A stretch of DNA of 64,000 nucleotides from a virus: IMG/VR virus record IMGVR_UViG_3300044712_001906, positions 13,883-77,882 of that record, one strand, 5' to 3'. Within the stretch, counting starts at the first letter, position 1. Each line of letters opens with the position of its first letter. The position numbers were made by a program, and so were the translations under genes. This document shows, one piece after another, positions 29,886 through 47,762 of the stretch. The notes beneath the pieces are model-generated. The model was not told where the DNA came from and searched no databases. It saw only the letters and a program-made list of their open reading frames with translations.

Positions 29886-31370
29886 TCAGAGGGTGAGCGA
29901 GACGTTCGTCCAGACCTTGTGCTTGCGCGGCGCGCGGACGTGCGGCGCCTTGAAGAGCATGGTCATGAACGGCTTGCTCGTGGCGACCTCCGCCAGCGGG
30001 CGGCGGATGACCGGGAGCAGGTTCGCGACGTAGAGCGAGTCGGGGTTCGTCTCGAGCGCGTAGACGTCGCTCGTGCCCGGGATGGACCGGTTCTCGTCGT
30101 AGAAGCCCGTCGAGTCGCCGCCCGTGCCGAGGAGGTTGCGCGCGAAGCGGCCGATGTACTTGCACGTGCTCGCGTCGCCGTCCTTGGCCGACCGGTAGAC
30201 CTCGTAGAAGCGGACCGAGTAGTCGCCCGAGGTCGGCGCGTCCGAGTCCTCGATGTCGATGAACACGCGGTCGCCGCTGGCCACCGTGACCGGACCCTTC
30301 GTGATGGGCGCCGCGCTGCCCTTGTCGCCCACGGCCACGATCTTGTAGTAGTAGTCGCCCAGGTCGGCGGCCTTGAAGTTCGTGTCCCCGCCCGCGTTCG
30401 GGCTGGTCAGCGTGATGTCCCCGCCGGCGACCACGGTCGGCGCCTTGCCGGAGGCGGTGGCCTTCGGGGTCTGCGCGTGGCGGATCATGGGGGTGGGCAT
30501 GAGCGGGATGGCCTCGCCCGTCGGACCGACGATGGAGAGCCGCCCGGCGTTGAAGGTCAGCATCGTGCCCGGGCCGAGGTCCATGGTCTGGAGCCGCGCC
30601 GAGGACTGCGAGAAGAGGCCGAGCAGGTTGCCGATGAGGGTCGTCGGCATGAGGATGGTGTCGACGTGCCCGTAGTACGGGTCGTCGGCGAGCTCGAAGA
30701 TGCCCGAGACGAAGTCCGCGAGCTGGAGCTTGCCGCCGTCGGCGTCCACGACGTTGCCGCCCGCCACGATCTGCTTGCGGATGCCGTCGAACTCGAGGGG
30801 GCTCATGGCGGTGTCGCCGTCGAAGAGCGACCGCTCGTACTTGCGCGAGAGGGACTGGACTGCCGCGCTCGTCTGGAAGTCGAGACCCGACTTGCTCACC
30901 TGCCCGCGGCCGAGGATGTCGGTGACCGCCGCGACGTCGGTGATGGACCGCTGGACGCCCAGGTACTTGATGCGGGCGATCTTGCGGTTGATCTCCGACT
31001 CCTCCTGCTCGGTCGTGCCGCCCTCGGCGAACGCCGCCGGGATGCCGTCGTCGCCGAACTGGGTCACGGTCGCGACCTCGTAGAGGGGCGAGCCGACGGC
31101 CTTCTCCTTCAGGAGCTTCTGCAGGACGAGGTCCTTGTCCTGGAAGGTCTCCGAGGTCCACTGCGTGTCGATCGCCTGCGTGACGAGCGGGGTGAAGGCG
31201 TCCGTGAACTCCTGACCCTGCAGGATGTTCGACACGTCGGCCTTGTAGAGCGGCTCGAGCTGCGGCAGCGCCTTCAGGAGCTGCTGCTGCGTCGGAGACG
31301 CCTTCGCCATGGCGACCGCGGCGCGGATCGCCTGGAACTCCTCGAAGCTGATGGTTCCGTGCCCTTCCAT
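29886..31370 (-). CDS. Major capsid protein (Herelleviridae-type)
   Basis: LFDGD...LEFDGI, NVVDADG, ILMP, YRS, DENRSIPGTSDV, LLPVIRRPLA, RAPRK match the recalled phage K/A511 Cps pattern; N-terminal propeptide with KA sites. Confidence 0.93.
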   Translation of the reverse strand: MEGHGTISFEEFQAIRAAVAMAKASPTQQQLLKALPQLEPLYKADVSNILQGQEFTDAFTPLVTQAIDTQWTSETFQDKDLVLQKLLKEKAVGSPLYEVATVTQFGDDGIPAAFAEGGTTEQEESEINRKIARIKYLGVQRSITDVAAVTDILGRGQVSKSGLDFQTSAAVQSLSRKYERSLFDGDTAMSPLEFDGIRKQIVAGGNVVDADGGKLQLADFVSGIFELADDPYYGHVDTILMPTTLIGNLLGLFSQSSARLQTMDLGPGTMLTFNAGRLSIVGPTGEAIPLMPTPMIRHAQTPKATASGKAPTVVAGGDITLTSPNAGGDTNFKAADLGDYYYKIVAVGDKGSAAPITKGPVTVASGDRVFIDIEDSDAPTSGDYSVRFYEVYRSAKDGDASTCKYIGRFARNLLGTGGDSTGFYDENRSIPGTSDVYALETNPDSLYVANLLPVIRRPLAEVATSKPFMTMLFKAPHVRAPRKHKVWTNVSLTL

Positions 31371-31394
31371 GTTCCTGCGCTCCTTCTGCTCGGC

Positions 31395-32135
31395 CTAGAG
31401 GCCGTACTTGGTGATGACGGCCGCCGGGTCCGAGCCCGGGCGATCGATGTCTCGCGCTGCCTTCTTGAGCTCCTCACGGCGCTCGCTGGTCGTGTCGCTC
31501 GCCTTGATGAGCGCCACGATCTTGCTGGCCACCTTGTCGCGGTCCTCGTTGGTCGGGACCGTCTGGGCGGACGGAGCGGCCGGCGTCCCCTTCGCGATCT
31601 GCTCGCCCGGTGGCGGCTGGATGACGACGTCGGCGACGTTCACGACGGCCTTGCCCGGGCGGGGCTCGGCCACGGCCTTCTCGAGCTCCCCGACCTTCGC
31701 GTGCAGCGAAGTGACGGTCTGGATGCTCGTCGCGACGGCCTTCACGAGCTCGCGGTGCGTGGCGCCGACGATCTCGAGGGCCTTGAAGAGCCCGGCGGCG
31801 CGGAGCATGGACGCGCCCTTGGCGGCCTGCTCCTCTTCGTCCTCGTCGCCGTCGTCGTCGGACGTGGCCTTGCCGTCCTCGTCGACCTTGCCGCCGCACT
31901 TGCCGCAGCACTTCTCCTCGGCCTTGGCGAGGCGCGCGGCCTCGTTGGTCGAGTCGAGGGCCTTGGCGACCTCCTCGAGGTGCCGGTCGAGCGCGGCCGG
32001 GTCGAGGTCGTTGAGCGGGTCGGTCTCCGCCTTGCACAGCCCGGCGGTGATCTGGGTCTGGACGATGGAGTCGATGAGGTCGGCTGCGAGGCCGCCCTTG
32101 GCCAGCGACTCGCGAAGCTCCTTCTCGGTCGGCAT
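31395..32135 (-). CDS. Capsid scaffold protein
   Basis: Between protease and MCP; helical with an acidic stretch; about ten hydrophobic-x-K-[A/G] sites. Confidence 0.8.
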   Translation of the reverse strand: MPTEKELRESLAKGGLAADLIDSIVQTQITAGLCKAETDPLNDLDPAALDRHLEEVAKALDSTNEAARLAKAEEKCCGKCGGKVDEDGKATSDDDGDEDEEEQAAKGASMLRAAGLFKALEIVGATHRELVKAVATSIQTVTSLHAKVGELEKAVAEPRPGKAVVNVADVVIQPPPGEQIAKGTPAAPSAQTVPTNEDRDKVASKIVALIKASDTTSERREELKKAARDIDRPGSDPAAVITKYGL

Positions 32136-32962
32136 CAGCGGTACTCCTGCGCGTCGCGCAGCAACTGGATTGCCGCCTCGCGGTTGAATTCCTCCGGGAG
32201 CCGGCGGACCACGCGGGCGATGAGCACGTCGACCGGTTCGAGCCCCTTGCAGAGGCGCGCCCAGTCGATGCCTGCCCTGGCGGCCGCGGCCTTCGCGATC
32301 GCGTCAGCGGCAGGCGACTCCTCGCGGAGCTGCGGCAGCGGACAGCCCGCCTTGGCCCACTCCTCGAGGCTCTGGTGACCCGTGCGCGCGAGGTGGGCCG
32401 TCATGCCGGCGGCCATCACGTCGAGCCACGAGTCGAAGTTGCGCGGCGCGGGGTCCACGGCGACCGTCAGGACACGCGCCTTCGTGATGCGCTTGCGGTC
32501 CGATGGGTCGCGCTCGAGGATCTCGCCCTCGACGGAGAAGCCCAGGCGCGTCCTCGCGCCCGACTTCGCCATGCCCTTGGCCGTCTCCCAGGCCTTACGC
32601 CCGAGCGGGTTCCAGAGGAACAGCTGCCCGCGCATCTTCATCGCGGCGACGCCGTCGTCGGTCAGAGTCGGGCTGATGTCGAGGGGCTCGCCGCAGATGT
32701 TGTCGTTGCGGGCGGGGTGGCCGTAGGAGATCTTCCCGAACGACTTGAAGAACGACCAGTCGATCCCGGACTGCACGACGACCTCGTCGTCGGCGTCGCG
32801 GCGCTCCGAGGTGATGATCCCCGACACGCGGCCGTGGTCCTCGTCACCGAGCGGCGACTGTGTGCCAGCCTTCTCGATGGGATCGCCGGCCTTCTCGAAC
32901 GGCTCCGCGTCGAACGGGAGCCACGAGTAGAAGCGATCGGGCTGGGTGCGGAGGGTCGCCAT
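32135..32962 (-). CDS. Prohead maturation protease
   Basis: GIITSERRDADDEVVVQSGIDW...YGH, LGFSVEG (Ser nucleophile region), VAVDPAPRN. Confidence 0.9.
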   Translation of the reverse strand: MATLRTQPDRFYSWLPFDAEPFEKAGDPIEKAGTQSPLGDEDHGRVSGIITSERRDADDEVVVQSGIDWSFFKSFGKISYGHPARNDNICGEPLDISPTLTDDGVAAMKMRGQLFLWNPLGRKAWETAKGMAKSGARTRLGFSVEGEILERDPSDRKRITKARVLTVAVDPAPRNFDSWLDVMAAGMTAHLARTGHQSLEEWAKAGCPLPQLREESPAADAIAKAAAARAGIDWARLCKGLEPVDVLIARVVRRLPEEFNREAAIQLLRDAQEYR

Positions 32963-32992
32963 GCCCCCCGATTCAGGGGGCACGTTTCAGGG

Positions 32993-33022: not shown

Positions 33023-36000
33023 TCACGGGTACCAGTAGTCGTACTTCGCGCCGTTCTTCTTCCGCATGCCGCCCTTCGTGCCGCCCGGGATGGCCTGCCA
33101 GCCGGCGCCAGTCGGACGCTCGCCTCCGTGCGTCGTTGATGCGGCATCGGTCGCCTTCGCGTGCTCCGCCTCGAAGGCCTTGACCTGTTCGTGGATGCCC
33201 TGCGCGCGGGCGATCTCCTGAGCCGCGATCTTGGGCTTGATGCCCCACGACTCGAGGTGCTCCGCCGTGATGCTCCCGTCGGCGACGCCCCTGACGAACT
33301 CGAGGTACGCGGCGCGGCGCGCTTCCTTCGTCGCCGTCTTGTCGCCCAGGGTCGCCCGCAGCCTGTCGAACGTCGCCCGGCTCGTCTTCGCCGCGTCCGC
33401 CCGGCGACGGAGGAGGCCCATGCCGACCTCGCCAGCCTTGCGATCTGGAGCGGACACGGTCTCAGGCTTCGCGCGATCTTCCTCGGGAGCGGCTTCCTCG
33501 TTCGGCGTCGGGGCGTCTGGCTCCGCCGCTGGGGCCTTCTCGTCGCGCTCCTCCGGGGCCTTCGTCGGCTGCTCGCTCTTGGGCTCGGACTTCTCGGGCT
33601 CGGGCTCGGGTTCGGACTTCGGTGGCTCTGCCGACTTGGGCGTCCGCTTCTTCTTCGCCCTGGCCGGCTTGGTCTTCTCGGGCTCGGGCTTGCCCTTGCC
33701 CTTGGGCGCCTTCGCGCCGTCAGGGTTGGGGGCGGCACCCGCCTTGCCCTTGCGCGGCTTCCTGGGTGTCCTCTCCGGCGCTCCCTTCGGGGCGGGCTCG
33801 GGCGCCTTCGATCCCCCGGAGGTCTCATCGATGGCGGGGTGCGGGGCGGGCGCCGGACGTGGCTTGCCCTTCGGCTTGGGCGCCACCGCGGCCGGCGAGA
33901 CCGGAGCGATCGGGTCGGCGCTGGGCGACACGAACGACGCGTCCGGCTTCTGGTAGCGCGCCTGATGCTCCGCGAGCGCGTCGACGAAGCCCTGATGCGA
34001 CTCCGCGACCTCGCGCTTGACGTCCCCCACGCGACGCTTCTCTCCCCCGAGCTCGATCTCCGCGTCGTCGGGGAGCTTGGCGAGCTTCTCGTGGGTGCGC
34101 GCGGTCGCGTCGACGTAGGTGGCGAGGGCCTCGTGCCGCTGGTAGTGCTTGGGGTCGTTGTAGCCCGAGGCCTCGGACGCAGCCCTGAGGTCGGCCGCGC
34201 GCTTGCGTGCCTTCTTCGACGCCGCCTTGATGAGGTCCGCGGCCCCGGCGCTCGCGCCAGCGAATAGGCCCGTCTGGCGCTTCCCGGCGTCTTTCTCGGA
34301 CCCGAGCATGTCTGCGAGGACGTCGGCTGTGCTCTTCGCTGGCCCCATGAGCGTCGACTGTCCGGCCGGGTTGCGCTGGGCGTGCTGGGCGATCTTGCGG
34401 AAGGCGTCGCTCATCTGGACGTGCCCAGTGCGTGTCGTGATGAGGTTCAGGACGTGCTTGCCCTCGGGCGAGAGCTTGGGCTTTGACCCGAAGCCGCCCG
34501 AGTCGCCTCCGAGGAGGTCGCCGAAGCCCTGATCGCGATCGAACTCGCTCACGCTCTTGATGTTGTGCTTGCGCATGTAGGCATGCGCCTGCACCGCCTC
34601 GACGAGCGGCGCCGAGAGGTCGTGCCCGGCCGAGCCCGACCGGACGATGTGCGGGACCGAGCGCGCGATCGCCTGGATCTGGCTCTGCGGCATGTCGCTC
34701 AGCGTGTCCGCGTGCGGGACGACCTTGCCGACGAGGAGGCGCTCGACGAAGGTCTTGCCGTCCTCGTTCAGCGCCCCGTCCTTGCCGAGGTACTGCGAGC
34801 GGTTGCGCCGATCGATGATGCCCGCGCGCTGCATCGCGTCGACGAAAGGCCGCGCGTCGGCCGACGACAGGTACGCGTTGAGCGTCGCGTGCTTGTCCTC
34901 GCCGTTGTCGGCCTTGGCCTCCATGCCCGTGGCGAGGGTCTGGAGCATCGCCGGGGTCACGAGGCGCGCCCGGGCGACCTGGTCCGTCCGCGGGTCCATC
35001 GACTGCGTGAAGGCCTCGTTGTAGCGGCGGACGAGCACGCCGAGGTTCTGCTTGCCCTGGTCCTCGACGTCGACCTGTCGCACCAGGACCGGCTGCTTGA
35101 ACTGCGACACGTCCTCGGGCGCGAGACCCCACTGGTGGGCGTTGTCCTTCAGGTGCTTGACGTAGGCCGCCCTCGCGTCGCCTCCCTTCTCGTGCGCGAG
35201 CTGGATCGACATCGTGCGCGAGTTGCCGCCGAGCACGATGCCCTTGTCGGTCACGAGCGGAGGCCCGTTGACGGCGTCGGGGTTGGTGTTCGCCACGAGG
35301 TCGGGCTTGAGCTTCTGCGCGTTCCTGAGCACCTTCTCCTGCTCTGCCTTGTCGCGATGGTAGACGCGCTCCTGAACTCCCTCCGGGTACTCCTCGCGCT
35401 GCTTGAAGCCCTTGGTGGGATCGTGCGACGCGATGAGGTCGGACGCCTCCATGAGCTTGTACCGCGCCGCCTGAGGGGTCGGAGAGCCGTCGGCGTCGGC
35501 GACGTAGACGGTCGTGCTCGAACCCGTCCCGGGCGCGGTCTCATCGCCGGCGTGCTTGGTGAGCGCGTGCCACTTCCCTTGCAGCTCGCGGTAGCGCTCG
35601 AGCTCGTCGAGCTTGCCGAGGTCCGGGTAGGCCTCAGCGGCGGCCTGGAGGCGCGCGAGCGCTGGCGACTCGACGGACTGCTTGGCGTAGGCGAGGAGCT
35701 GCTTGACGGCGCTCTCGTTGCCCTTGACCGCTTCGACGGCGCCGAGGAGCCCTTCGAGCTTCCCGAGGTCTGCGGCTGCGGCTGGGCGAAGCTCGTCGAT
35801 CGCCCGTCGCGACGACGCGGCCTCGACGACGTGGGCGGGTTCGACCTGCTTGGCGCCCGAGGTGCGCCGCAGGTTCTCCGCGCCGCGGGCGATCTGCCGC
35901 CCGGCTCCCGTGACCTCGCGCCCGGTCGCCTTGTGCGTGGCCAGCGCGAGGAGGACACCCTTCGCGTCGCCGGACCATCCGGGGCGCTGCGCGAGGAAGT

Positions 36001-39000
36001 CGACGAGGGCCTTGGCGTGCTTGAGGTCCACGCCCGCGGCCTGGAAGCGATCGCCGTAGGCCTTCCACATGGCGTCGGCGGTGTCGTGGGCGCCATCGGG
36101 GAGTTTGCCGACGGACGCGAGGAGCTGGCGCGCGATGGTCTCGGCGCCGCGCTCCATCCGCGCGCGGTAGACCGCGTGGAGCTCGTCATGGAGCGCCGAC
36201 AGGGGCAGCGTGCGCTCCTTGCCGGTCTTGGGGTCGCGGAGCGTCACCGAGCCGTCCTCGCCGACCTTCACGACGTCGGCGACGCCGTGACGGCGGAGGT
36301 TGATGCGCTCGCCCTCGCGCGCTTCGTGGGCGGTGGCCGCGTCGTGGTAGTAGTAGCGCCAGCCTCCCCCGGGCTTGGGCACGCGGCGGATGTACTTGTG
36401 GGAGCCGGCCTTCCAGAGCGCCTTTCCGATCTGGGCCGGGAGCTCGTGGCCGTGGGCGATGGCGGCGGAGACGGCCTTGATCAGCGAGGCATGGCGGGTG
36501 CTCGTGTCCGATGTAGCGAAGGCTTTGGCGAGGTGCCCGCCGTTCTTGAGGACGTCCATGAGCTTGCCCATGGCCGCAACGATGCGCGTGCGCTCGTCGC
36601 CGCTCGGGTAGGGCTGCGCCTCGGCCACGGCGCCGTCGGACCGCATGACGGTGACGCCGGTCCCGAAGACCTTGTCGGTGCCCGCGACCAGGTAGCCGTT
36701 CTCGCGCCCTCCCGCCTTGAGCGTGTCGTGGACGTAGGTCTCGAAGGCGCGCGCGAACAGCTCATGTGGCGACGCCCAATAGCCCTCGCCGAGCCGGACC
36801 GCCGATTTCACGAAGTCGGTCGCGGTGGCGGGCGTGTCGCGCCAAATCTTCTCCAGGCTCTTCGCGCGGTTGATGCTCAGGCGCAGGCTCTCGACGTCGC
36901 GCTCCAGCTTCGCCATGCGGGCGGCGTCCTCTGGCGTTCGGACCCGCTTGCTCTTGACCGCCTCCTCCTCGCGCTGGATCCAGTAGCTCCGCGCCTGCGC
37001 GGCCATGAGGAAGTCCTGCACCCGCTTCGGCGCCAGGCCCGGCTCGGCCGCCATGCCCTGATACTTGTCGCGCTCGGCGGCCCACTTCGTCGTGTTGAGC
37101 GCGAGGATCTCGTGGGCGCGCTTGAGCGCCGCCTCGTCGGCGACGGTCGAGCCCTTGATCTTCTCGTGCTCGCTCACGAGGTCGTTGGACTGCTGGATGA
37201 GGGCGTTGGTGTTGTCGGCCAGCGTGCGCGCGTGCTTCCGATGCGACTCTCTGGCCGCGTCGGGGTTGGGGTGCGCGGTGATCGCGTGCATCGCGGCGGA
37301 GACGGCTGCGTTGACGTCCGGCGGCAGGTTCGATCGCCCGCTGGCGTGCGACAGGAACGTGCCCTGCAGCGAGGTCGCGCTCCCGAGGTAGTGCTCCGCG
37401 ATCACGTTGTCGAGCGCGTGGCCCCACTCGTGAGCTACGGACCCGCCGCCGTTCAAGCGGGTGATGTTGATCTGCTTGCGCGACGGGGCGTAATGCGCCG
37501 CGGCCGCGCCTCGCCCGTCGGCGCCCAGCGCGATTCCGAGGCGCCCCTTGAACGAGACGACCGACGGGTCGATGCCCGTCACGTCGACGAAGTCGTGCAT
37601 GGCCGCTTCGAGCGCCCTGGTGTGATAGGCGCGGTCGGCCTGCGTCATGTAGCCGTCCTTCCCGTAGTCGACCTCGCGCAGCCCGAAGGCCTCGCGCATC
37701 CGCTCGGGGGAGACCCCCTCGGGCATGGGGCGCCCGCCGACGCGCTTGAACTCGCCGTCGCTGCGCTTGGCGCCGCGCCACGAGAGGGCCTCTTGTGCCG
37801 ACTGGCGCCCGGAGACCTTCGGCGCCTTCTCGCCTGCCTCCTTCGGCTTCTGGCTGTCCTCCATCCACGCCCAGCCCCTCGCCTGCGCGGCCTGCGCTTC
37901 GGCGGGCGGGAGCGGGGCGCCGCGAACGAGCCCGTCCAGCTCCTTCGCCTTCTCGGTCGTGGCGTACAGGTGGCGCCCCTTGTCGAGTAGGCGTGTGAAG
38001 TTGGCCCCCAGGGCGTCGTAGGGCCGCGGGACCTTGTGAACGATGGTGAAGGCGTAGACGTGGTGGTCGTAGACGAGGCGGTACTCCTCGCCCTTGTTCG
38101 CTGCCGCCAGCGCCCGCGCCTTGTCGGACGCCTCGCGGCTCGACGCGTACTCGCCAGTCCCCGGTACGCGGGCGTACTTGCTCGCGCTCTCGCGCCGGTG
38201 CTTCATCTCCAAGAGCAGACGGCCAATGTCCCCGAGGTCGCGGACGTTCTTGAGCGCGCCGTGAAGCTGCCGTAGGTCTTCGGCATAGGCCATTTGCTCG
38301 GCCTTGTTCGCGCCCGGCTTCTCGCGCACGGCCGAGAGGATGGCGATCGCGCAGTAGGCCGTGCCAGGCGTCATCCCGGCCGCCTTCGCGTGCGCCAGAT
38401 CGATCGGCTCGACGAGGCGGCTCTTGCGGACGATGTGCGCCGCGTCGTCGTATCCGAGGCGGCTGATGTCATCCAGGCTGACGGTCGCCAGCGCCGCGAG
38501 ATCCTTGCGCGAGCCCCAGACGTGATCGCCCGTGGCTTCGATCTTGCCGTCGAGGCCCTTGACCCCCTCTGGCTTCTGCCGCGGCTTGCGGGGCATTTTC
38601 TCCACCGGAGGGGTAGGCGCCGGAGCCGGAGCGGGGTCGGGAGCCGGAGCAGGCGCCGGTGGCGGGGGCGCCGGGGCGGGCTTGGCCTCGGGGGCGTCGT
38701 CGCCCTCGGGGGCATCGTCGAGCTTCCGGAGGTGGCCTTCCATCCACTCGGCCGCGGAGAGCCACGCGTCGGCGTGGTAGGTGTTGCCGGGGAGGCGCCG
38801 TTCGATCTCGGTGAACAGGTCCTTCCGGGCGCGGATCTCGGCGATGGCGGCCTGCAGCTTGCCGCGCTCCGCCGCCGCCATGGGCGCCACGGTGTCGCGG
38901 GTCAAGGCGAGGAGGTGCTCCAGGCCTTCGACCTTCTGCCGCCAGATTTCCGTCGGCGTGTGCGGGTGCTCGGCGCCGTAGTAGCCGGCGAGGTCGTCGG

Positions 39001-40633
39001 TGCGCCCGTCGAAGAGCTGCTGCAGCTCCCTCTTCGCCGCGGTCATGCTCTGCGGCACGGTGCTCTTTGGCGCGTGCCCGCGCTCCCACATGAGGAGGGC
39101 CGTCGCCGAGCGGAGGCCTGGCATCCAGGCCTGCTTGTGGAGCGCCGAGAAGTCGTCCGCGATCTGGGCGCCGGTGCGCTCGGGGGCGGGCTCGGGCGCT
39201 GGGGCTACCGGAGGAGGCAGGGCCGGTTCCTTCGCCTTCCGGTTCTTCGCAGCCGCCTCCCTCCGCTGCTTCAGCTCCGCCTCCGAGAGCCCCGCGCGCT
39301 TGGCGAGCCCTTCGGCACGCTCGACCTGCTTCAGCGTCCCGTGCGCGTGGGCCTCGTCGAGCACGGCGCTGGCCTTCTTCTTCGCCTCGTCCATCGCGGC
39401 CGCATGCTCGCTTCGGAGGAGCTCGGCGAGCCTCTGTTTCGTGATGACCTGTGTGGCGCCCGTCTCGTCGTGTTTGACGGTGACGTGGTCGCCCGGCGAC
39501 GCCCCGATGATGTGGTAGTGGCCCTCGCCGACACGGAACGCTGCGCCCACGACGAAGTGCTTCTCGTCCGCGACGCCTCCGCCATGGTGGACGGCGTAGA
39601 AGTACCTGTACCCGCCACCGCTCTTCGGGACGCGCTTGATGTACTTGTGCCCCGCGCCCTTGAAGAGCCGCTCGCCGACGTCAGCCGGTAGGGGAACCCA
39701 GAAGCTCACGCCGCGGCGCCCGGACATCGAAGCGGCCATGGGCTCGCGGCGGAAGATGTCGACCTGGCCAGTGCCCTGCCCGTGCATGGTGACCTCGTTG
39801 GCGTGATGGACCTTCGGCCCCTGCGGCGTGTGGACGAGGACAGCCATGCGTCCCGTCCGCTCGTGGACCCCGACCGCCTTGACCTCGTGGAGGTTGCCTT
39901 CGCGGTCTCGGATGATGGCTCCGCGCTGGAGCGCCCGGCCGTGCGGGTTCTCGTGGCGCCAGGCTATGTGGTGTGCCGGGTCGACGTACCTGCCGCCCTT
40001 CGGACCGATGAAGACCGCCTGCGGGCGCGGCTTCGCCGGTGCGGCGCCCGACTTCGCGGGCTCGCCGTCTGGCACGTGCTTCGGGGCCCCGAAGAGGTCG
40101 GCCTGCGCGGCCTTCTCGACGGAGCTCGGCCCGCCAGTCATCGCTCGAGCGCGCTCACGCCCGTCCTCGGCGACGATCTCCTGCGGGTAAACGACGGCGG
40201 CGGCGTACTGGTAGCGCTTGGCGAAGCCGTCGACCTCGTCCTCGTCTGGGCGCAGCCGGTCGCCGGAGATCGACACCGTGAGGATGACAGGCCTGCCGCC
40301 GTGCTTGGCGACGGCGCCGAGGGCGTAGGACTCGGCCGATGCCGGGCCGGTTGGCTTGGCCGTCAAGTAGACGACTGGAGCGCGCTCGGAGTCCTCGCCC
40401 GTCAGGTTGGATCGCGCGTGACAAGCGCCCAGGCCTTCCTCGAGGATGCGCGGCAGCAGGGCGGAGCTCGTGCCGTGGAAGAGGCGCACGCCCGGTTGCC
40501 CGCGGAGCTCCTCGAACGGTGGCGGGGCCATCCAGTCGATGGTGCCGCGCCAGTCGAGGTCGCCGACGTTGCGGCCGTCCTGAGGAACGAGCGTCATGCC
40601 CATCTTCTCGGGCAGGTCGATGGGCAGCGTCAT
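33023..40633 (-). CDS. Large polyvalent head protein: ART-like, SH3-like, LPD5/LPD1 zincin and DdrB-like ParB domains
   Basis: LFHGTS...ILEEGL...VYLT (ART); GDHVWGSRKDL (LPD5-like); HEWGHALD, YWASPHELFARAFE, PYPSGDER (LPD1); ARYKLMEASDLIASH...GPPLV...VLGGNSRTM (ddrB-ParB). Confidence 0.88.
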   Translation of the reverse strand: MTLPIDLPEKMGMTLVPQDGRNVGDLDWRGTIDWMAPPPFEELRGQPGVRLFHGTSSALLPRILEEGLGACHARSNLTGEDSERAPVVYLTAKPTGPASAESYALGAVAKHGGRPVILTVSISGDRLRPDEDEVDGFAKRYQYAAAVVYPQEIVAEDGRERARAMTGGPSSVEKAAQADLFGAPKHVPDGEPAKSGAAPAKPRPQAVFIGPKGGRYVDPAHHIAWRHENPHGRALQRGAIIRDREGNLHEVKAVGVHERTGRMAVLVHTPQGPKVHHANEVTMHGQGTGQVDIFRREPMAASMSGRRGVSFWVPLPADVGERLFKGAGHKYIKRVPKSGGGYRYFYAVHHGGGVADEKHFVVGAAFRVGEGHYHIIGASPGDHVTVKHDETGATQVITKQRLAELLRSEHAAAMDEAKKKASAVLDEAHAHGTLKQVERAEGLAKRAGLSEAELKQRREAAAKNRKAKEPALPPPVAPAPEPAPERTGAQIADDFSALHKQAWMPGLRSATALLMWERGHAPKSTVPQSMTAAKRELQQLFDGRTDDLAGYYGAEHPHTPTEIWRQKVEGLEHLLALTRDTVAPMAAAERGKLQAAIAEIRARKDLFTEIERRLPGNTYHADAWLSAAEWMEGHLRKLDDAPEGDDAPEAKPAPAPPPPAPAPAPDPAPAPAPTPPVEKMPRKPRQKPEGVKGLDGKIEATGDHVWGSRKDLAALATVSLDDISRLGYDDAAHIVRKSRLVEPIDLAHAKAAGMTPGTAYCAIAILSAVREKPGANKAEQMAYAEDLRQLHGALKNVRDLGDIGRLLLEMKHRRESASKYARVPGTGEYASSREASDKARALAAANKGEEYRLVYDHHVYAFTIVHKVPRPYDALGANFTRLLDKGRHLYATTEKAKELDGLVRGAPLPPAEAQAAQARGWAWMEDSQKPKEAGEKAPKVSGRQSAQEALSWRGAKRSDGEFKRVGGRPMPEGVSPERMREAFGLREVDYGKDGYMTQADRAYHTRALEAAMHDFVDVTGIDPSVVSFKGRLGIALGADGRGAAAAHYAPSRKQINITRLNGGGSVAHEWGHALDNVIAEHYLGSATSLQGTFLSHASGRSNLPPDVNAAVSAAMHAITAHPNPDAARESHRKHARTLADNTNALIQQSNDLVSEHEKIKGSTVADEAALKRAHEILALNTTKWAAERDKYQGMAAEPGLAPKRVQDFLMAAQARSYWIQREEEAVKSKRVRTPEDAARMAKLERDVESLRLSINRAKSLEKIWRDTPATATDFVKSAVRLGEGYWASPHELFARAFETYVHDTLKAGGRENGYLVAGTDKVFGTGVTVMRSDGAVAEAQPYPSGDERTRIVAAMGKLMDVLKNGGHLAKAFATSDTSTRHASLIKAVSAAIAHGHELPAQIGKALWKAGSHKYIRRVPKPGGGWRYYYHDAATAHEAREGERINLRRHGVADVVKVGEDGSVTLRDPKTGKERTLPLSALHDELHAVYRARMERGAETIARQLLASVGKLPDGAHDTADAMWKAYGDRFQAAGVDLKHAKALVDFLAQRPGWSGDAKGVLLALATHKATGREVTGAGRQIARGAENLRRTSGAKQVEPAHVVEAASSRRAIDELRPAAAADLGKLEGLLGAVEAVKGNESAVKQLLAYAKQSVESPALARLQAAAEAYPDLGKLDELERYRELQGKWHALTKHAGDETAPGTGSSTTVYVADADGSPTPQAARYKLMEASDLIASHDPTKGFKQREEYPEGVQERVYHRDKAEQEKVLRNAQKLKPDLVANTNPDAVNGPPLVTDKGIVLGGNSRTMSIQLAHEKGGDARAAYVKHLKDNAHQWGLAPEDVSQFKQPVLVRQVDVEDQGKQNLGVLVRRYNEAFTQSMDPRTDQVARARLVTPAMLQTLATGMEAKADNGEDKHATLNAYLSSADARPFVDAMQRAGIIDRRNRSQYLGKDGALNEDGKTFVERLLVGKVVPHADTLSDMPQSQIQAIARSVPHIVRSGSAGHDLSAPLVEAVQAHAYMRKHNIKSVSEFDRDQGFGDLLGGDSGGFGSKPKLSPEGKHVLNLITTRTGHVQMSDAFRKIAQHAQRNPAGQSTLMGPAKSTADVLADMLGSEKDAGKRQTGLFAGASAGAADLIKAASKKARKRAADLRAASEASGYNDPKHYQRHEALATYVDATARTHEKLAKLPDDAEIELGGEKRRVGDVKREVAESHQGFVDALAEHQARYQKPDASFVSPSADPIAPVSPAAVAPKPKGKPRPAPAPHPAIDETSGGSKAPEPAPKGAPERTPRKPRKGKAGAAPNPDGAKAPKGKGKPEPEKTKPARAKKKRTPKSAEPPKSEPEPEPEKSEPKSEQPTKAPEERDEKAPAAEPDAPTPNEEAAPEEDRAKPETVSAPDRKAGEVGMGLLRRRADAAKTSRATFDRLRATLGDKTATKEARRAAYLEFVRGVADGSITAEHLESWGIKPKIAAQEIARAQGIHEQVKAFEAEHAKATDAASTTHGGERPTGAGWQAIPGGTKGGMRKKNGAKYDYWYP

Positions 40634-41809
40634 CTAGTCCTCCGCGTCGACGGCGTGCGACGGACGCATGTTCCAGTGCTTGTCGAAGGCGAAGCCTGGC
40701 GGGACGACTTGCGTGGAGCAGCGACAGTTCGGGTGCCCGGGCCACAGCCCCGCCTGCTTGTCCTCGTCCTTCACGCCCACGCCCGTCCCGTTCTCGACGA
40801 GCCGCGCCACCGTCCAGACCTTCGGCCGCCCGCCGCCGTCGAGGTAGAGCCTCCGGCAGAGCGCGCACGCCCCCGACTCGGGGATGCGTGCGACCTGGGC
40901 GTCCGGCCCGAAGTCCCTGACCGCGGTGATCGCCACGCCCTCGTTGTGCGTCGCCTGGAGCTCCGTGCGGGCGATGCGGAGCCAGTTGCGCGTCCAGTCG
41001 CCCGTTCGGTGCCCGAGGTCGCTCGCGAGGTCCTCGGCGGTCTGCCCGGTGGCGATGGCGTCGGCCACCTCCTCGCGGATGGCCTCGCGCGTGGCGATGC
41101 GCTGGTCCTGGTCGACCTCGCTCTGGATGTCCTCGCCCTGCCAGACCTCGCGCTCGCGCGTCGCCCACTCGGTCACGTCGTTCTCGACGCGGTTGCCGAG
41201 GCCGCGCACGTACTCGGCGCCGCGCGTCCGCGCCTGGATCCACGACTCCCGTTCCTGGGGCGTCAGGTACTCCGGGGGCGCGGGGATGGGCGGCTCTCCG
41301 CCTCCTCCTCCCCCGCTCCCCCCCGGAGGGGTAGGCGGCGCAGGCGCCGATGGTCCGCCACCGTCTGCGGCCGCTGCGGGACCTCCGAGCTCCGGCGGCG
41401 CTTGCACGCGCTCGCGTAGCGCTGCCTCCGTTTGCACGGCCTGCAGCTCGTCTTCCTCGCGCCGCCGCGCGATCTCGGCGCCGACGGCCGGGAGCCAGCG
41501 CGAGAGCGGCCAAGCCCGCATCTGCTTCACGAGCGACGGGGCCGCACCGGCCATGAGCGCGCCCATGAGCAGGGCGAGCGCCCACGGGTCCATCGCAAGC
41601 TGGCTCTTCGGACCGCCTGCGCGCGCGCCACGCGAAGGTGCCGGGGCTGGCACGGCAACGGCAACGTCCACGGGCGCCTCGAGGACGCCGGCGTCGATGA
41701 GCTCGCTCATGCGCTCGGGCGTGACCGCTGACGGCCCGAAGGCCTGCACGAGCCACGCGTCGTTGTGCGCCCTGGCGATGGCTGCGGGGTCGGTGAGGGG
41801 CTCGGCCAT
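40634..41809 (-). CDS. MuF-like minor head (head morphogenesis) protein
   Basis: RIARTE, ACALC and HPNCRC motifs; ATG at 41809. Confidence 0.88.
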   Translation of the reverse strand: MAEPLTDPAAIARAHNDAWLVQAFGPSAVTPERMSELIDAGVLEAPVDVAVAVPAPAPSRGARAGGPKSQLAMDPWALALLMGALMAGAAPSLVKQMRAWPLSRWLPAVGAEIARRREEDELQAVQTEAALRERVQAPPELGGPAAAADGGGPSAPAPPTPPGGSGGGGGGEPPIPAPPEYLTPQERESWIQARTRGAEYVRGLGNRVENDVTEWATREREVWQGEDIQSEVDQDQRIATREAIREEVADAIATGQTAEDLASDLGHRTGDWTRNWLRIARTELQATHNEGVAITAVRDFGPDAQVARIPESGACALCRRLYLDGGGRPKVWTVARLVENGTGVGVKDEDKQAGLWPGHPNCRCSTQVVPPGFAFDKHWNMRPSHAVDAED

Positions 41810-42063
41810 CACGGCCTCCCCGAGCACGCCTGCCTCGTCGCCAGGATGTCCGCGCGGAGCCGCTCGGCTCTGCGCTGGTAGGCTCGCGTCATCATCGCTG
41901 CGAGCTCGTCGAGGGCGGTCACTTCGCCGCCGGCAGGCGCGCCGACGCCCTTGGCGATCGCCTCGCGCGCCGTGTAGAACGCCTCGTCGAGACGCGCGGC
42001 GACCTCGGCGGCCGTCAGGCCGTCAAGCTCGCCAGGCCTCGACTCGACGATGGCGACGCGCAT
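41809..42063 (-). CDS. Small hypothetical head-region protein
   Basis: Coupled to the MuF start; contains IAKG. Confidence 0.6.
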   Translation of the reverse strand: MRVAIVESRPGELDGLTAAEVAARLDEAFYTAREAIAKGVGAPAGGEVTALDELAAMMTRAYQRRAERLRADILATRQACSGRP

Positions 42064-42463: not shown

Positions 42464-44083
42464 TCAGACCTCCACCATCCACGCTCGCGCCTGCGGGCGC
42501 GTCACGGGCACGCGCCTGGCGGTTGCTCCCTTGCCGAACGCAGCAGCGAAGGCGTCCGCCGCGTCGTCCACCTGTCCGCCCGTCTCGTCGTCGAGCTGCG
42601 GCGCGCCGTCAGGCCCCTGCGGCCCGGCACCTTCCGCGTCGCCACCGTCGCCCGGCTGCCCGCCACCGTCCTGCGGCGCTGCGGCCGCCTGTGCCGCCTG
42701 GAGCCACGTGGCGTTCAGAATGACCTGCCCCTTGCCGTCCGGAAGGGGCTTCATGTCGTGCTCGGCGCGGATCTCGTCGACCATCATGAAGTGCTGGCAG
42801 CGCTTGACGTCGTTCTCGAGCTTCTCCGTCTCGCTCATCGAGTCCATGCCGGCGAACTCGAGCTCGAAGTCCTCGTTGATCGGCCAGACGATGTGCTCGT
42901 TCAGCGCGTTCTGCGCCGAGCGCACGAACGGGCGGATGCCGCCTTCCTTGGAGTTGGCAATCCGGTCGCGCGGGTTCGCGCTCGCCAGCGCGTTGGTCTG
43001 GTTCTCGTTGCCGTAGACGTACCCGCTCTCGCTCGGGTCCATCAGGAACAAGGCGTGGATGATCTTGTTCAGGAAGCCGATCCAGACCGAGAACTCCATC
43101 TCGCGGTTGTTCGACGAGAGGTTGACGGCCTTCAGCTCCTCGTCCTTGCTCGGGTCGAGGCGGAGGATCGGGGTCTTCTTGGCGTTGCGCGGCCCCGAGA
43201 GCATCGCGCGCACGTACTGCGTGAACGCGGCGAAGTTCTTGGGATCCATCGCGCTCTTGAGCGTGAGGATCGTGCTGACGTGGACACCATTCGTGAAGTT
43301 CGCGTCGTTGTAGGCCGCCGCGTTCAGGTAGCTCTGGAGGACCTGCACGGCCTCGTCGAGCTCGGGGAAGCCGTAGCCGCAGACGTTGACGTCGGTCCGC
43401 GGGCGACGGACGCAGAACGCGAGCTCGTCGCCGTCGAACTGCTGGACGATGCGCCCCTGGATGACCTGCGCGAACTGGCGCTCGGACGGCGGACGGCCCG
43501 TGCTCAGGTCCTTGGGCCGAGCGATCCGAATCGTCGACCCGTCCACGGCGCGGAAGCCAGCGGGGCGGTTGCCCTTGCTGTAGAGCTTCTCGAAGCAGGC
43601 CTGGTCGTAGATGAGCGCGTCACGGCCCCAGAGCCGGAGGAAGGTCTCGAGCGAGCCGTTGCCGTGCTTGCCGCCCGTCGTCAGGACGAGCTTCGTCAGG
43701 TCTCGGATGACCTTCTGCGCCGCCCGCGTCGGATGCGCCTTGGGGTCGCGCATCTTGATGACCGTGCCGATGCCGTACCGGTTGGGCTGCGGAACGGCGA
43801 ACTCGGCGAGCTGATTGATGCGCCTGGAGATGATCGGCGCGACGACCGGCACCCGGGCCATGCGGGCGAGCGCATCGTAGGTCAGACCGATCGTGCCGTG
43901 ATGGGTCGGGTCCTGCGCGCCGAACCAGAACGCCATCTGCAGCGGGTCGAACGCCCATGCCTCGCCAGGCACGGTGGGCGGCGGCGGGACTGATGCGGAT
44001 GCGGGCGCCACGTCGCCCGGGTCCTGCCTCCGTCTGGCCTTGCCGAGGCCGAAGGCCCGCTTCGTCGCGTCCCAGAAGCCCAC
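42464..44083 (-). CDS. Portal protein (Herelleviridae-type)
   Basis: DQACFEK, AVDGSTIR, GYGFPEL, MEFSVWIGFL...LFLMDPSE; likely GTG start at 44083. Confidence 0.92.
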   Translation of the reverse strand: MGFWDATKRAFGLGKARRRQDPGDVAPASASVPPPPTVPGEAWAFDPLQMAFWFGAQDPTHHGTIGLTYDALARMARVPVVAPIISRRINQLAEFAVPQPNRYGIGTVIKMRDPKAHPTRAAQKVIRDLTKLVLTTGGKHGNGSLETFLRLWGRDALIYDQACFEKLYSKGNRPAGFRAVDGSTIRIARPKDLSTGRPPSERQFAQVIQGRIVQQFDGDELAFCVRRPRTDVNVCGYGFPELDEAVQVLQSYLNAAAYNDANFTNGVHVSTILTLKSAMDPKNFAAFTQYVRAMLSGPRNAKKTPILRLDPSKDEELKAVNLSSNNREMEFSVWIGFLNKIIHALFLMDPSESGYVYGNENQTNALASANPRDRIANSKEGGIRPFVRSAQNALNEHIVWPINEDFELEFAGMDSMSETEKLENDVKRCQHFMMVDEIRAEHDMKPLPDGKGQVILNATWLQAAQAAAAPQDGGGQPGDGGDAEGAGPQGPDGAPQLDDETGGQVDDAADAFAAAFGKGATARRVPVTRPQARAWMVEV

Positions 44084-44089
44084 GCTACA

Positions 44090-44119
44090 ACGGTGGGGCC
44101 GATGCGGCAGGGCGTTAAG
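44090..44119 (-). promoter_or_regulatory. Putative late promoter, copy 3 (CTTAACGCC-N15-CACCGT)
   Basis: Motif ends 27 nt before the portal GTG; no SD, suggesting a leaderless transcript. Confidence 0.6.
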
Positions 44120-44255
44120 GCGGCCGGGGCCGCCGCGGTCGAGCTCGTTGCTGGTCTGCTTGCCGATGCCGACCGCTATGGATGGCCCGTGGACCTCCGA
44201 GAAGCAGTCACGTTGGACGCCCGGAAGTCGTCTCGCGACGTTCCGGCTCCCGTCA

Positions 44256-47200
44256 TCACGTGGCGAAGCGCCCGTCGTCGAGCTGGCGGACCTGGCCGTT
44301 GTCGACAAGGACCGCCAGGATGTCGCCGACGTCGGCTGCGGGCGCCTGCGCGAAGGTGGCGGCCAGCGCTTCGAGCGTGAGCGGCGCGGCCGCCGTAGCT
44401 AGGACCGCTCGAACTGCGCGGACGCGCTCGAGGACGGACGACGGCCACGGTGCCGAGGACGCAGGGCTCGGTGCCGGCGCGGCCTCGTCGTCCTGGGTCT
44501 CTTCCTCAGCCGCGGGCGCTGCGTCCTCGGTGGCCGCGGCGCCGCGCTGGAAGTCGGGGCGCAGCCAGCGGACGAGGCCGCGCTTCTCCTCCTCGACCCG
44601 CTCGGCGTTCAGTGCCACGAGGCGCTCGAGGATCTCCTCGCCGGTGAGCGTGGTCGGCCAGCCGTAGGCGTCGAAGACTGCGGCGTCGAGATCGTCGTGG
44701 AGCTTCAGCAGGATCGAGCAGAGGCCCTGCTCGTGGACCTTCTTCTCCTTGGCCGTCAGGGCTTCGCCGCTCCGGAGCTTCTCGAGCACGTTGTACATGT
44801 TGGTGAGGGTCAGGTCCGGGTGCGCGGCCTGCTGGCGCTTGCGGTGGGCGTCGAGGGCCTCGGCGAGCTCGCGGATTCGGGCCTGCTGGGGCTCGGTCGC
44901 GGCGGGGAAGGGGAAGGGGTCGAAGCAACGACTCTTGGCGTAGACAGGATCGTCGCCGACTCCCAGTCGGCCGCCTGCGGCGATCGACCAGAGTATGTGT
45001 GGTCGGCCGCACAGGTTGCCCAGCACGAAGGCGTCGTCGGAGGCGACGACAACGTTCTTGTGCACACAGAGATAGGCAGACTCAATGAACTGAAAGATGC
45101 GGTGCTTCGCGGTCTCGGTCGTGGCCATGTACCGCCGGAGGCCGGAGAGTGCCCGTCGGAGTTCGGGTCGTTCCCATCCAAAGCGCCACCATAACTCGCG
45201 AATCGTCTTGCGACGGTTCTCCTTGCGCTCCGGCAGGACGTGATCCACAAGATGCTGGAGTGCACTCGCGTTCGCCTGCCGCGCCGCGTTTTCGGACATC
45301 CCCGAGAAGTCGATCACATACTGCTCGCGGCACTTCTGGAGGAGGTCCCGACCGCCAAGGAACGGTCGTATCACCCGGCCATCGCCCGCCGCTCGGAGGG
45401 CGCTGGCAACGCCAGGTTCAACGATGAATCCGGCGCCGTGCAACGCGACGCCGTTCGCCGCGCATCCCGAGTTGGCGCGAAGGGGCATCGCGGCAGCCAC
45501 GTTGGCCCCCGCCGAGAGATCAGCGTGGACGCAGTCGACCGCGCGCGGCTGAAGGATCACTGTGGATGCCCCTGCCTCGTCATGCTGTCTGCCCTCCGAG
45601 ACGACCCGCAGCAGCATTGCTGGCCCGGTGTTGGCGTCGGCGCATGTCATGGCGACGCGCACATCGGCACCATCGGTGCTGTCGACCCAAGGATGGTTCG
45701 GGACGGCCCACGCAATCCTGACCCCTGCCTCGATCTGCCGCACCAACACGCGCCGGTTGAACGTCTGCGTGATGCTGTTGGTGGTGATGAAGCCGAACCG
45801 GCGGAGCTTGCCGGCCGAGACCAGGTTGCCGGCCTCGTTCCACCAGTACATGACGAAGTCGGCGTTGTCCTCGACCTCGCCTGACCACGCCCGACGGAGG
45901 GCGTCCACGTAGCCGTCCCCGAGCGCTGCTCGCATGCGCTTCGTGCCCAGGAACGGCGGGTTGCTGACGACGTAGGCCGCGTCTGGCCACTCCGCCTTTC
46001 TCGCGTTGACGTACCTGTAGAGCGGCTTCCGCGCCGTCTCGTCCGGCACCTGCTTGCCGGTCACGGGATGGGTCTTGGTGGTCTCGCCATCCCACACCGT
46101 GACCGGCTTCCCATCCTCCCCAACCACCACCTCCTCCGCGTCGTAGGCCAGCACGGCGTCCCTGCACTCGATGTTCTTGAAGTCTCGCAGCACCGGCTCG
46201 GTGACCTGGACGCGGCCGAGCGTGCGGAAGTGCCACTGCAGGTAGCCGATCCAGAGCACGAGCTCGGCGATCGCCGCCGCGCGGGGGTTCTTCTCGATGC
46301 CGAGGAACTGGTGCGGGTCGACCGTCTGGCCCCGCAGCTCAAGCGTCTCCTGGGCCGCATCGAGGTCAGCGAGCGCCTCGAGCACCTCGCCCTCGAGCCG
46401 CTTCATGTGCTCGAGGGTGACGTAGAGGAAGTTCCCCGTCCCGCAGGCCGGGTCGAGGACGCGGAGGCTCGTGAGCTCCCGGCGGAAGTCGGAGATGAGC
46501 TTGACCGCCTCCTCCTGCTTCTTCCCGGCGGCGCGAAACGTCTTAGCCTTCGTGCCCTTGAGCGCGAGCGCCGCCGCCTTGACGGACTGCCACTCCTCGC
46601 GCAGCGGCTCGATGACGGTCGGGAAGACGAGTCGCTCCACATACGCGCGCGGGGTGAAGTGGGCGCCGAGGGCGTGGCGCTCGGCCGGGTCGAGGGCGCG
46701 CTCGAGGAGCGTCCCGAAAATGGCCGGCTCGACATGGCTCCAGTCGGTCCGGGCCGCGTCGATGAGTAGATCGATCTGTGGGGTCGAGAGCTGGATGGCC
46801 GTCGCATCCTTGAAGAAGCGCCCGTTGAACCGCAGGAGCTTCGTCCGGAGGGACGGCGAGAAGCCGCCGCGATCCATCTCGTGCCAGAGCGACTCGAGCA
46901 TGCTCGCGAGGGCCGCGGGCTCCGAGCGCATGTCCGTCAGGAGCTTGGTGAAGCTGTCCTTCGGGATGAGCCCGACGTCCTCGGCGAACATCGTGAAGAG
47001 GCACCGCATGAGGAAGTCGGCCACGAGCTGCGGGTGATGCCGCGCCGCCTCGAGCGACTTGGCGAGGGCCGCGAGGCGTGCGGCGATCTTCTGGGTCACC
47101 TCGGCGGCGTAGCGGCCCGGGTCGAGCGTCATCGGCTCGGTCCAGACGCGTCGCAGTCGGTTCGCGATGGCGGGGTCGGCGAGATCCTCGAGGGCGAAGC

Positions 47201-47762
47201 GGTGCGAGCGGGCGTCGGGGAAGGGGAGGTAGGCCTTCCCGTCGCGCGCGAAGTTCGCAAAGAGGGCGAACGAGTGCCCGACGTCGACGACGATCAAGAA
47301 CGGCGGCCACTCCGGCAGCGCGCGGGCGTAGCGCTCGGCCTGGGCGCGGGCGCGGTCCATCGCGGCCGTCCACCACGCGGTGCCACGCACCGCGGTGCCG
47401 ATGCGGCGGGTGCCTGCGGCCGGCGATGAGCCGCCGAGGAGATCGAGCTGCTCGGCGTCCTCGGCCTGGCCGGCCTGGGTCCCTTGCTTCGCCTCGAGCA
47501 CGAAGCAGTCCGCCTTGTAGAGGTCGATCCAACCGCGGCTAGTGGTTCCGTCGCCGTTCTGGAAGGTCACCGCCTTCTCGAAGACGTACCGGTTCTTCGC
47601 CTCGTCCTGCTTGGTCGCGTCGGGGTGCGCGATGTCGAGGAGCGTGCAGAGCTCCGTGAGAAACGACACGTAGTTGGCCCGCTCGGCGCCGCCTGAGGCT
47701 CGCCATTTGGCGATGAAGGCGTCGATGGTCGCGCGTTGCCCTGCGGTGTCTGCCTCCGACAT
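44256..47762 (-). CDS. MmeI-like type IIL/IIG restriction-modification enzyme (endonuclease, m6A MTase, TRD)
   Basis: IDLYKADCFVLEAK (PD-ExK), FNGRFF, GAHFTP, VLDPACGTGNFL, SNPPFLG, FDPFPFP, LDAAVFDAYGW. Confidence 0.92.
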   Translation of the reverse strand: MSEADTAGQRATIDAFIAKWRASGGAERANYVSFLTELCTLLDIAHPDATKQDEAKNRYVFEKAVTFQNGDGTTSRGWIDLYKADCFVLEAKQGTQAGQAEDAEQLDLLGGSSPAAGTRRIGTAVRGTAWWTAAMDRARAQAERYARALPEWPPFLIVVDVGHSFALFANFARDGKAYLPFPDARSHRFALEDLADPAIANRLRRVWTEPMTLDPGRYAAEVTQKIAARLAALAKSLEAARHHPQLVADFLMRCLFTMFAEDVGLIPKDSFTKLLTDMRSEPAALASMLESLWHEMDRGGFSPSLRTKLLRFNGRFFKDATAIQLSTPQIDLLIDAARTDWSHVEPAIFGTLLERALDPAERHALGAHFTPRAYVERLVFPTVIEPLREEWQSVKAAALALKGTKAKTFRAAGKKQEEAVKLISDFRRELTSLRVLDPACGTGNFLYVTLEHMKRLEGEVLEALADLDAAQETLELRGQTVDPHQFLGIEKNPRAAAIAELVLWIGYLQWHFRTLGRVQVTEPVLRDFKNIECRDAVLAYDAEEVVVGEDGKPVTVWDGETTKTHPVTGKQVPDETARKPLYRYVNARKAEWPDAAYVVSNPPFLGTKRMRAALGDGYVDALRRAWSGEVEDNADFVMYWWNEAGNLVSAGKLRRFGFITTNSITQTFNRRVLVRQIEAGVRIAWAVPNHPWVDSTDGADVRVAMTCADANTGPAMLLRVVSEGRQHDEAGASTVILQPRAVDCVHADLSAGANVAAAMPLRANSGCAANGVALHGAGFIVEPGVASALRAAGDGRVIRPFLGGRDLLQKCREQYVIDFSGMSENAARQANASALQHLVDHVLPERKENRRKTIRELWWRFGWERPELRRALSGLRRYMATTETAKHRIFQFIESAYLCVHKNVVVASDDAFVLGNLCGRPHILWSIAAGGRLGVGDDPVYAKSRCFDPFPFPAATEPQQARIRELAEALDAHRKRQQAAHPDLTLTNMYNVLEKLRSGEALTAKEKKVHEQGLCSILLKLHDDLDAAVFDAYGWPTTLTGEEILERLVALNAERVEEEKRGLVRWLRPDFQRGAAATEDAAPAAEEETQDDEAAPAPSPASSAPWPSSVLERVRAVRAVLATAAAPLTLEALAATFAQAPAADVGDILAVLVDNGQVRQLDDGRFAT

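Follow-up and report, generated by a model that had tools for sequence, protein, structure and literature searches.

The window analysed here is a stretch of 64,000 nucleotides taken from the IMG/VR virus record IMGVR_UViG_3300044712_001906 (positions 13,883 to 77,882); the record is 77,882 bp long and is rated complete by CheckV, and the GC content of the window is 70%. We focus on one of its genes, which encodes a protein of 2536 amino acids (aa) and carries two copies of a short peptide, here called the HKY tag, each placed behind a lysine motif and at the head of a repeated module; leader, lysine site and module together are referred to as a cassette. On the minus strand, the genes follow one another in the order MmeI-like restriction-modification enzyme, portal protein, an open reading frame (ORF) of 144 aa, MuF-like minor head protein, the 2536-aa protein, prohead protease, an ORF of 302 aa and major capsid protein (Table 1). 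Pfam places an LPD1 domain at aa 1281-1364 (E 6e-18) and a ddrB-like ParB domain at aa 1722-1854 (E 2e-18) of the large protein, while the zincin motif HEWGH occupies aa 1068-1072, between the two cassettes. Since several effector-type domains are joined in one ORF, and this ORF is set among virion late genes with MuF, the protein counts among the phage-type polyvalent proteins as Iyer et al. 2017 use the term (PMC5512222).

The two HKY tags are identical at 14 of 18 residues and directly follow the sequences LFKGAG (tag 1) and LWKAGS (tag 2). A preliminary description of this DNA, made from the letters alone, had noticed a near-identical repeated peptide heading unrelated cargo, and this is indeed the arrangement, with the zincin/LPD1 region behind tag 1 and the ddrB-ParB domain behind tag 2. 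The similarity goes further than the tags, as aa 313-423 align with aa 1396-1503 at 33% identity (pairwise E = 7e-16), which marks an internal domain duplication and not a chance likeness. The duplicated unit is a folded module of about 110-150 residues whose first hairpin is the tag; the 20-aa tag of the preliminary description is therefore, in this window, not an isolated element. Two further hairpins had been listed there as related. One of them, FIGPKGGRYVDP, is a recurrent tag, although it belongs to a separate family, and the other, at the C-terminus, is common only to this protein and one close homologue.

Table 1 Features of the window, with positions counted from its first nucleotide; a slash within a motif marks a predicted cut.
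Feature	Positions	Strand	Basis or remark
Major capsid protein	29886..31394	-	Library match
Predicted maturation site LYK/A of the capsid protein, about 24 residues before the conserved N-arm	within 31167-31253	-	
Prohead protease, predicted cutter	32135..32986	-	PHROG head maturation protease
N-terminal leader of the protease, FYSWLPF..FEK/AG..IEK/AG	32864-32932	-	
Polyvalent-protein gene with both cassettes	33023..40633	-	2536-aa ORF by translation; Pfam LPD1 and ddrB-ParB
C-terminal Gly/basic/aromatic motif GW..IPGG..KYDYWYP, aa 2511-2536	33026..33103	-	
ddrB-like ParB cargo behind tag 2	35072..35470	-	Pfam
Rest of module 2, aa 1430-1509: subtype B small barrel and long helix	36107..36346	-	
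Tag 2, HKYIRRVPKPGGGWRYYY, beta hairpin, aa 1412-1429	36347..36400	-	Translation; hairpin pLDDT about 80
Leader 2 and predicted cut site, aa 1396-1408, HELPAQIGKALWK	36410..36448	-	
Zincin cargo behind tag 1, from HEWGH (37418-37432) to Pfam LPD1 (36542-36793)	36542..37432	-	
Rest of module 1, aa 347-445: subtype A Tudor/SH3-like barrel with GHYH and HDETG, and helices	39299..39595	-	
Tag 1, HKYIKRVPKSGGGYRYFY, beta hairpin, aa 329-346	39596..39649	-	Translation; model strands at model residues 33-37 and 43-49
Leader 1 and predicted cut site, aa 311-325 (FWVPLP...LFK), conserved lysine K325 followed by GAG	39659..39703	-	
Tag of the second kind, FIGPKGGRYVDPAHHIAW (FIGPKGGRYVDP), aa 208-225	39959..40012	-	IGP[RK]GGKW family; no adjacent lysine site
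MuF-like minor head protein, directly upstream of the polyvalent-protein gene	40634..42022	-	Library match
Portal protein	42464..44398	-	Library match

Both module copies were modelled with AlphaFold2, giving an overall predicted local distance difference test (pLDDT) score of 78 for copy 1 and 75 for copy 2. The two models have a common layout, consisting of a leader that forms a short strand or helix, a linker of low confidence that contains the lysine, the tag hairpin, a small four-strand barrel and one to three helices. The barrel strands reach a pLDDT of about 90 in both copies. In copy 1, aa 324-329 (FKGAGH, including K325 and GAG) remain below 50, and we therefore read this stretch as a flexible linker. 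The best structural neighbours in VIA-align were Tudor, CarD, EF-P KOW and SH3 domains (Z 5-6.7, root-mean-square deviation 1.7-3 Å, 48-65 residues), and Foldseek against the PDB returned weak SH3 matches with E about 0.2. The assignment of the barrel to a specific family was rejected, as the VIA-align matches are at the level of a generic small barrel. The SH3/KOW-like beta module expected behind each tag is thus right at the level of the fold and points to no specific family.

The barrels fall into two subtypes. Subtype A, to which copy 1 belongs, keeps the motifs GHxH (39512-39523, minus strand), RHDE[TS]G (39458-39472, minus strand) and, later, EHA, which may form a metal or catalytic site; subtype B, represented by copy 2, is without them.

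An exhaustive profile search of 1.84 billion proteins recovered 865 cluster representatives of the module at E <= 1e-3 and 673 at E <= 1e-10, and a word-based search found 51 proteins with it. Neither the two copies nor their relatives were matched in Pfam (including the LPD1-40 subset), PHROGs, NCBIfam or the PDB sequences; the ESM Atlas gave no usable match, a tblastn search of PLSDB plasmids with one query gave no significant one, and a literature search for the motif string returned irrelevant papers only. The module is a real, widespread and unnamed family, found in phages whose GC content ranges from about 30 to 73%. Each protein carries one to four copies, and 117 of 206 tag instances have the HKY histidine among the first 70 residues (57%; median position 36). 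Stand-alone short proteins that consist of the module only are also present, and the hairpin is additionally found without the barrel in low-GC phages. Behind the module stand LPD1/zincin, ddrB-ParB, InPase, Sno-type and SNF2 helicases, methyltransferases including a C5 DNA methylase, ferritin-like, PAPS reductase, 2H phosphoesterase, ART-PolyVal and RNA ligase domains, and many members show no Pfam match at all. The tag proved portable, as had been supposed, often occurring at the N-terminus of separate genes and before unrelated enzymes.

The genomic setting of the cassette is largely that of the window. In 20 IMG/VR loci found via the module, the stretch from portal to prohead protease contains the cassette genes, on either side of MuF, and the window's portal, MuF, protease and capsid proteins have homologues there. 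Among 80 loci anchored on the capsid protein, closer relatives with enough upstream DNA nearly all carry cassette genes, most of them again with the portal on one side and the protease on the other, and distant relatives carry none. An unbiased DNA-pattern scan for G-HKYI[KR]R[VI]P returned 56 stretches, 45 of them distinct; all are genuine hairpins by inspection, and a strict pattern fits 42 of the 45. Portal, MuF, protease or capsid-protein homologues are present in 34 of the 52 newly fetched tag-anchored loci, and natural fusions of MuF with a cassette exist. In two loci, the cassette genes lie about 4 kb downstream of the capsid gene, and this and the other exceptions to the head setting all occur in viral contexts. 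A scan of GTDB bacterial and archaeal genomes found two contigs of metagenome-assembled genomes; L103 shows cassette protein, protease and capsid protein arranged as in the phages, and L104 gave no detectable head-gene match. The placement of the tags mainly among head-region genes, which the preliminary description had anticipated, applies to most loci, beside homologous portal, MuF, protease and capsid genes, but not to a minority outside head modules. Across phages whose capsid proteins are only 27-36% identical, the tag core remains about 75% identical. Being far better kept than the capsid proteins, it points to a conserved partner, which may be DNA or the well-conserved portal.

A separate observation in low-GC phages is an RNA ligase (T4 Rnl1-like, PHROG 562) that bears an N-terminal HKY hairpin (MNIVLVKTVKGSERPG-HKY...). 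It was seen at L117:3008-4873 (minus strand) and in L126, in both cases away from head genes.

The tag is preceded by the consensus [LVI]-x-K-[GA]-A-G; of 206 instances, 190 have K at -4, 188 have G or A at -3 and 181 have L, V or I at -6. In the broader form [LIVMFWY]-x-K-[AGS], the motif occurs within 16 residues upstream of 237 of the 238 distinct tags, compared with 5.7% of random windows of the same proteins, which bears out the K-[AGS] motif first noticed ahead of the two tags in the window. Its spacing from the tag varies from -4 to -10, with a distance of 8-10 residues in 11 cases, and this variability marks the lysine site as an element separate from the hairpin. Among 66 aligned family members, the site lysine is one of only four invariant residues, though its segment is modelled as disordered. 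The same h-x-K-[AGS] motif (h, hydrophobic) recurs in other head proteins of this lineage. In the capsid proteins it precedes the PLVPQSIE-type N-arm by about 20-24 residues in roughly 50 of 58 sequences, read by eye (LRK/SA, LRK/AL and LNK/AL, with LYK/A in the window). In the protease homologues it stands just before the catalytic domain in 45 of 47 N-termini (for instance FEK/A and LSK/A).

The N-arm of the capsid protein has a counterpart of its own. Its motif [PAS][LM]xx[EQ]S[LI][EDA], located near 31167-31190 (minus strand) in the capsid gene, is copied in the C-terminal part of the prohead protease (32309-32338, minus strand), and was counted in 79 of 83 capsid-protein ORFs, 37 of 70 protease ORFs and 4 of 5330 other ORFs. 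Through this copy, the protease may become incorporated into the shell. The N-arm motif as an address for cargo was rejected, because 0 of 177 cassette proteins carry it.

The occurrence of one site in both the capsid protein and the protease points to the head protease as the enzyme that would use it. It thereby speaks against self-processing, in which the polyvalent protein would be cut by its own zincin (HEWGH/LPD1), or by the His, Asp and Glu residues of the module, without the prohead protease. Such a scheme could draw on the zincin between the cassettes, on a published hypothesis that stems from P1 DdrB (PMC5512222) and on the conservation of GHxH and HDE[TS]G in subtype A. However, most cassette proteins are without a zincin, LPD1 being present in 6 of 66 aligned members, and subtype B keeps the site while having none of these residues, so that we consider self-processing very improbable.

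In many related phages, the units of the polyvalent protein are separate genes, each opening with a leader of 10-35 residues that ends in the lysine site. Examples are M-P-F-K-L-G-R-F-V-R-A-L-F-K/G-A-G-HKY, which begins right after the MuF stop, and M-F-T-Y-S-Q-W-L-V-D-F-L-A-K/A-A-G-HKY. A Trp lies 6-16 residues before the Lys in 58% of cassette leaders and 68% of protease leaders, against 12% expected. Since this signal is common to both, the leader is a serious candidate for a targeting or recognition element, and as an address the removable leader appears to be an equally good or better candidate than the tag. A second short tag, [YF]IGP[RK]GGKWAD..HT..W, was found in 36 distinct instances with no conserved domain behind it. 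It occurs in loci L001, L002, L005, L012, L015, L099 and L101 and also inside MuF ORFs, and it follows h-x-K-[AGS]-G-G-P in 27 of the 36. With an unrelated tag behind the same lysine site, the position after the predicted cut seems to accept interchangeable tags.

These observations also bear on whether the site is cut at all. The module could be an ordinary duplicated domain, possibly of an unpublished LPD family, in which K-G-A-G would be a hinge or ligand loop and the likeness to the capsid and protease motifs would be coincidental. Duplication and shuffling of domains is familiar from polyvalent proteins, some of which stay whole when packaged, the N4 virion RNA polymerase being one (PMC5512222); furthermore, h-x-K-[AGS] is a short motif that turns up in the window protein as often as chance predicts, and subtype A has enzyme-like conserved His, Asp and Glu. 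We nevertheless judge an uncut domain to be improbable, considering that the motif precedes nearly every tag at variable spacing, appears before the unrelated second tag as well, takes fixed places in capsid-protein propeptides and protease N-termini, retains an invariant Lys in a segment modelled as disordered, and closes the short leaders of units encoded as separate genes.

Another way to combine the evidence would be to take the leader as the address and to let the tag work in the host. The Trp leader and the K site alone would then target the protein to the capsid and have it processed, much as in T4, and the hairpin and barrel would tether the enzyme to nucleic acid or to a host machine (e.g. 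RNA polymerase) after ejection. The resemblance of the cassette leader to the protease's own leader, the position of the tag on the retained side of the site and the existence of stand-alone module-only proteins all agree with this, and a tag far more conserved than the capsid proteins is what would be expected for a universal target. The structural neighbours include CarD and the UvrD/PcrA Tudor domain, which bind RNA polymerase, as well as KOW and PWWP nucleic-acid binders (Z 4.5-5.7), but these Z-scores are in the range that the tool calls a common arrangement. Moreover, a host range of 30-73% GC makes a single host protein a less likely target than DNA, and the reading offers no account of why the unrelated IGP[RK]GGKW tag takes the same position after the site. 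We regard a tag that works in the host as unlikely, less so than an uncut domain.

The reading that we favour, and think somewhat more likely than not, is that a cassette of leader, head-protease site and retained hairpin plus barrel marks capsid cargo in an uncultivated HK97-type phage lineage. In order, the cassette would comprise a hydrophobic leader, often with Trp or Pro, the flexible [LVI]-x-K-[GA]-A-G site, the basic and aromatic hairpin HKYI[KR]RVP...[YW]RY[FY]Y, the Tudor/SH3-like barrel and the helices. The polyprotein would enter the procapsid together with MuF, portal and scaffold, where the prohead protease would cut after K325 and K1408. The fragments so released are predicted to begin with GAG-HKY... 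(zincin fragment) and AGS-HKY... (ParB fragment). More speculatively, leader and site could act as a targeting and processing signal of the T4 type, and the retained hairpin and barrel could be a common handle that holds the fragment on a universal partner inside the head. The partner that we favour would be either packaged DNA or the portal/MuF vertex, which would let the fragment leave with the genome. The comparisons suggest a reusable handle for capsid-carried cargo. The narrower proposal, that the tag itself is a packaging or ejection signal, is possible but in our view doubtful. Slightly more tentative still is an extension in which the HKY and IGP[RK]GGKW hairpins would form an interchangeable cargo code of a large group of HK97-type phages, with leader and Lys site loading and freeing the cargo and the retained hairpin docking on DNA or the portal/MuF vertex, where the cargo would stay until it is delivered along with the genome.

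Several points weigh against the cassette as a marker of capsid cargo. The h-x-K-[AGS] motif is short and not enriched within the window protein (12 observed, 11.7 in shuffles), so the label of a cleavage site rests on conservation across genomes, and the putative specificity of the prohead protease is likewise read from conservation only. The conserved tag lies on the retained side of the predicted cut and so cannot work exactly like the T4 leader. The functional likeness to the T4 capsid-targeting sequence (CTS) that had been suggested for the HKY tag is in this respect not borne out, whereas the leader might still fit it. The GHxH, HDE[TS]G and EHA motifs of subtype A hint at an activity or metal site of the module's own and not at a pure handle. 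The head setting has its exceptions, in that a family of RNA-ligase fusions lies amid a homing endonuclease, a glycosyltransferase and a tail-fibre gene, and some cassette genes come after baseplate genes. The module found no significant match in 50,697 GenBank phage records (tblastn, five queries), so no isolate is at hand. When the downstream domain of a tag-only gene was included in the tblastn query, two GenBank phage records matched, in that downstream part only. Finally, Iyer et al. 2017 proposed that zincin domains, and not head proteases, process polyvalent proteins (PMC5512222).

A few other features of the locus were recorded. The ATG of the polyvalent-protein gene directly follows the TAG of MuF in the same frame, with GGAGGA just upstream. 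A recoded TAG, or a fusion to MuF by readthrough, was ruled out, since every same-frame TAG junction in the window has its own ribosome-binding site and start codon, as ordinary coupled genes would. The same-frame junctions of the window use TAG in 10 of 11 cases (one of them at 40631-40636, minus strand), and genes joined at TGA hardly ever share a frame, which is an odd bias. The restriction-modification enzyme directly upstream of the portal gene (44256-47789, minus strand) is a complete MmeI-type enzyme with N-terminal, helicase-spacer, methyltransferase and TRD domains. The first 177 residues of the polyvalent protein (40101-40633, minus strand) have an ART-like look (FHGTS...), with no Pfam match at E <= 10.

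It is established that phages can inject enzymes that travel in the capsid, but how such cargo is selected, cut and held is understood for only a few model phages. The cassette provides a searchable sequence grammar, present in hundreds of protein clusters from uncultivated phages of about 30-73% GC, which predicts exact cut positions and fragment ends and would tie the giant polyvalent proteins to the head protease instead of a zincin of their own. If the reading is true, unknown genes of head modules could be better annotated and engineered phages could gain a handle for protein loading. Should the interchangeable cargo code apply as well, the loading and delivery of foreign proteins by phage heads could become portable and programmable.

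Among known systems, the closest comparison is with phage T4. There the prohead protease gp21 recognises L/I-x-E and cleaves behind it, which strips internal proteins of a targeting leader 10 residues long; a motif of this kind also lies close to the N-terminus of gp21 (PMC9026906). With the T4 CTS (IPI-III, Alt; gp21) the cassette would have in common a short N-terminal leader ending in a three-residue protease motif, hydrophobic at P3 and charged at P1 (L/I-x-E in T4, L/V/I-x-K here), its presence on diverse cargo carried in the head, and a protease that bears the motif near its own N-terminus. They differ in that P1 is Lys here and not Glu, and the phage lineage is unrelated. In addition, the best-conserved element of the cassette, hairpin plus barrel, comes after the cut and would be retained, and the cassette also occurs internally in polyproteins.

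The polyvalent proteins described earlier (PMC5512222) resemble the window protein in being giant multi-enzyme proteins beside MuF, portal and late genes, with LPD1/zincin, ddrB-ParB and an ART-like N-terminus, and are predicted to be packaged and injected. Here, in contrast, the units are often separate genes, each headed by a cassette. The earlier work proposes zincin-mediated processing, and its main text contains neither this module nor the grammar of a head-protease site (PMC5512222). In the giant phages, the prohead proteases phiKZ gp175 and SPN3US gp245 have many targets among the internal or ejection proteins, which they cut at a short motif; in all cleavages but one the part taken off is an N-terminal propeptide, 20-254 residues long, and the protease sheds a C-terminal propeptide of its own (PMC10052503). 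Head maturation in these phages differs from the present case in having no shared retained tag and in being supported by mass spectrometry, while the cassette is known from sequences. The motif of the giant-phage protease ends in Glu.

Encapsulins offer a further parallel, as a short portable cargo-loading peptide sends unrelated enzymes inside a shell of the HK97 fold, much as we propose for the cassette. Their peptides are not known to be coupled to a protease site, and the sequences are unrelated to the cassette. Among the top neighbours, both models have the SH3-like domain of the translocation signal (TSA) of F-plasmid TraI, a conjugative relaxase (Z 5.4-5.7, 55-65 residues, 18-22% identity). 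This small barrel labels its protein for transfer together with DNA, a role akin to that proposed for the handle, which makes it a suggestive analogy, although its scores are within the generic small-barrel range, no sequence relationship exists and the transport machinery is another. The strategy itself is already known from the T4 CTS and the polyvalent proteins, and the cassette would be a variant of it.

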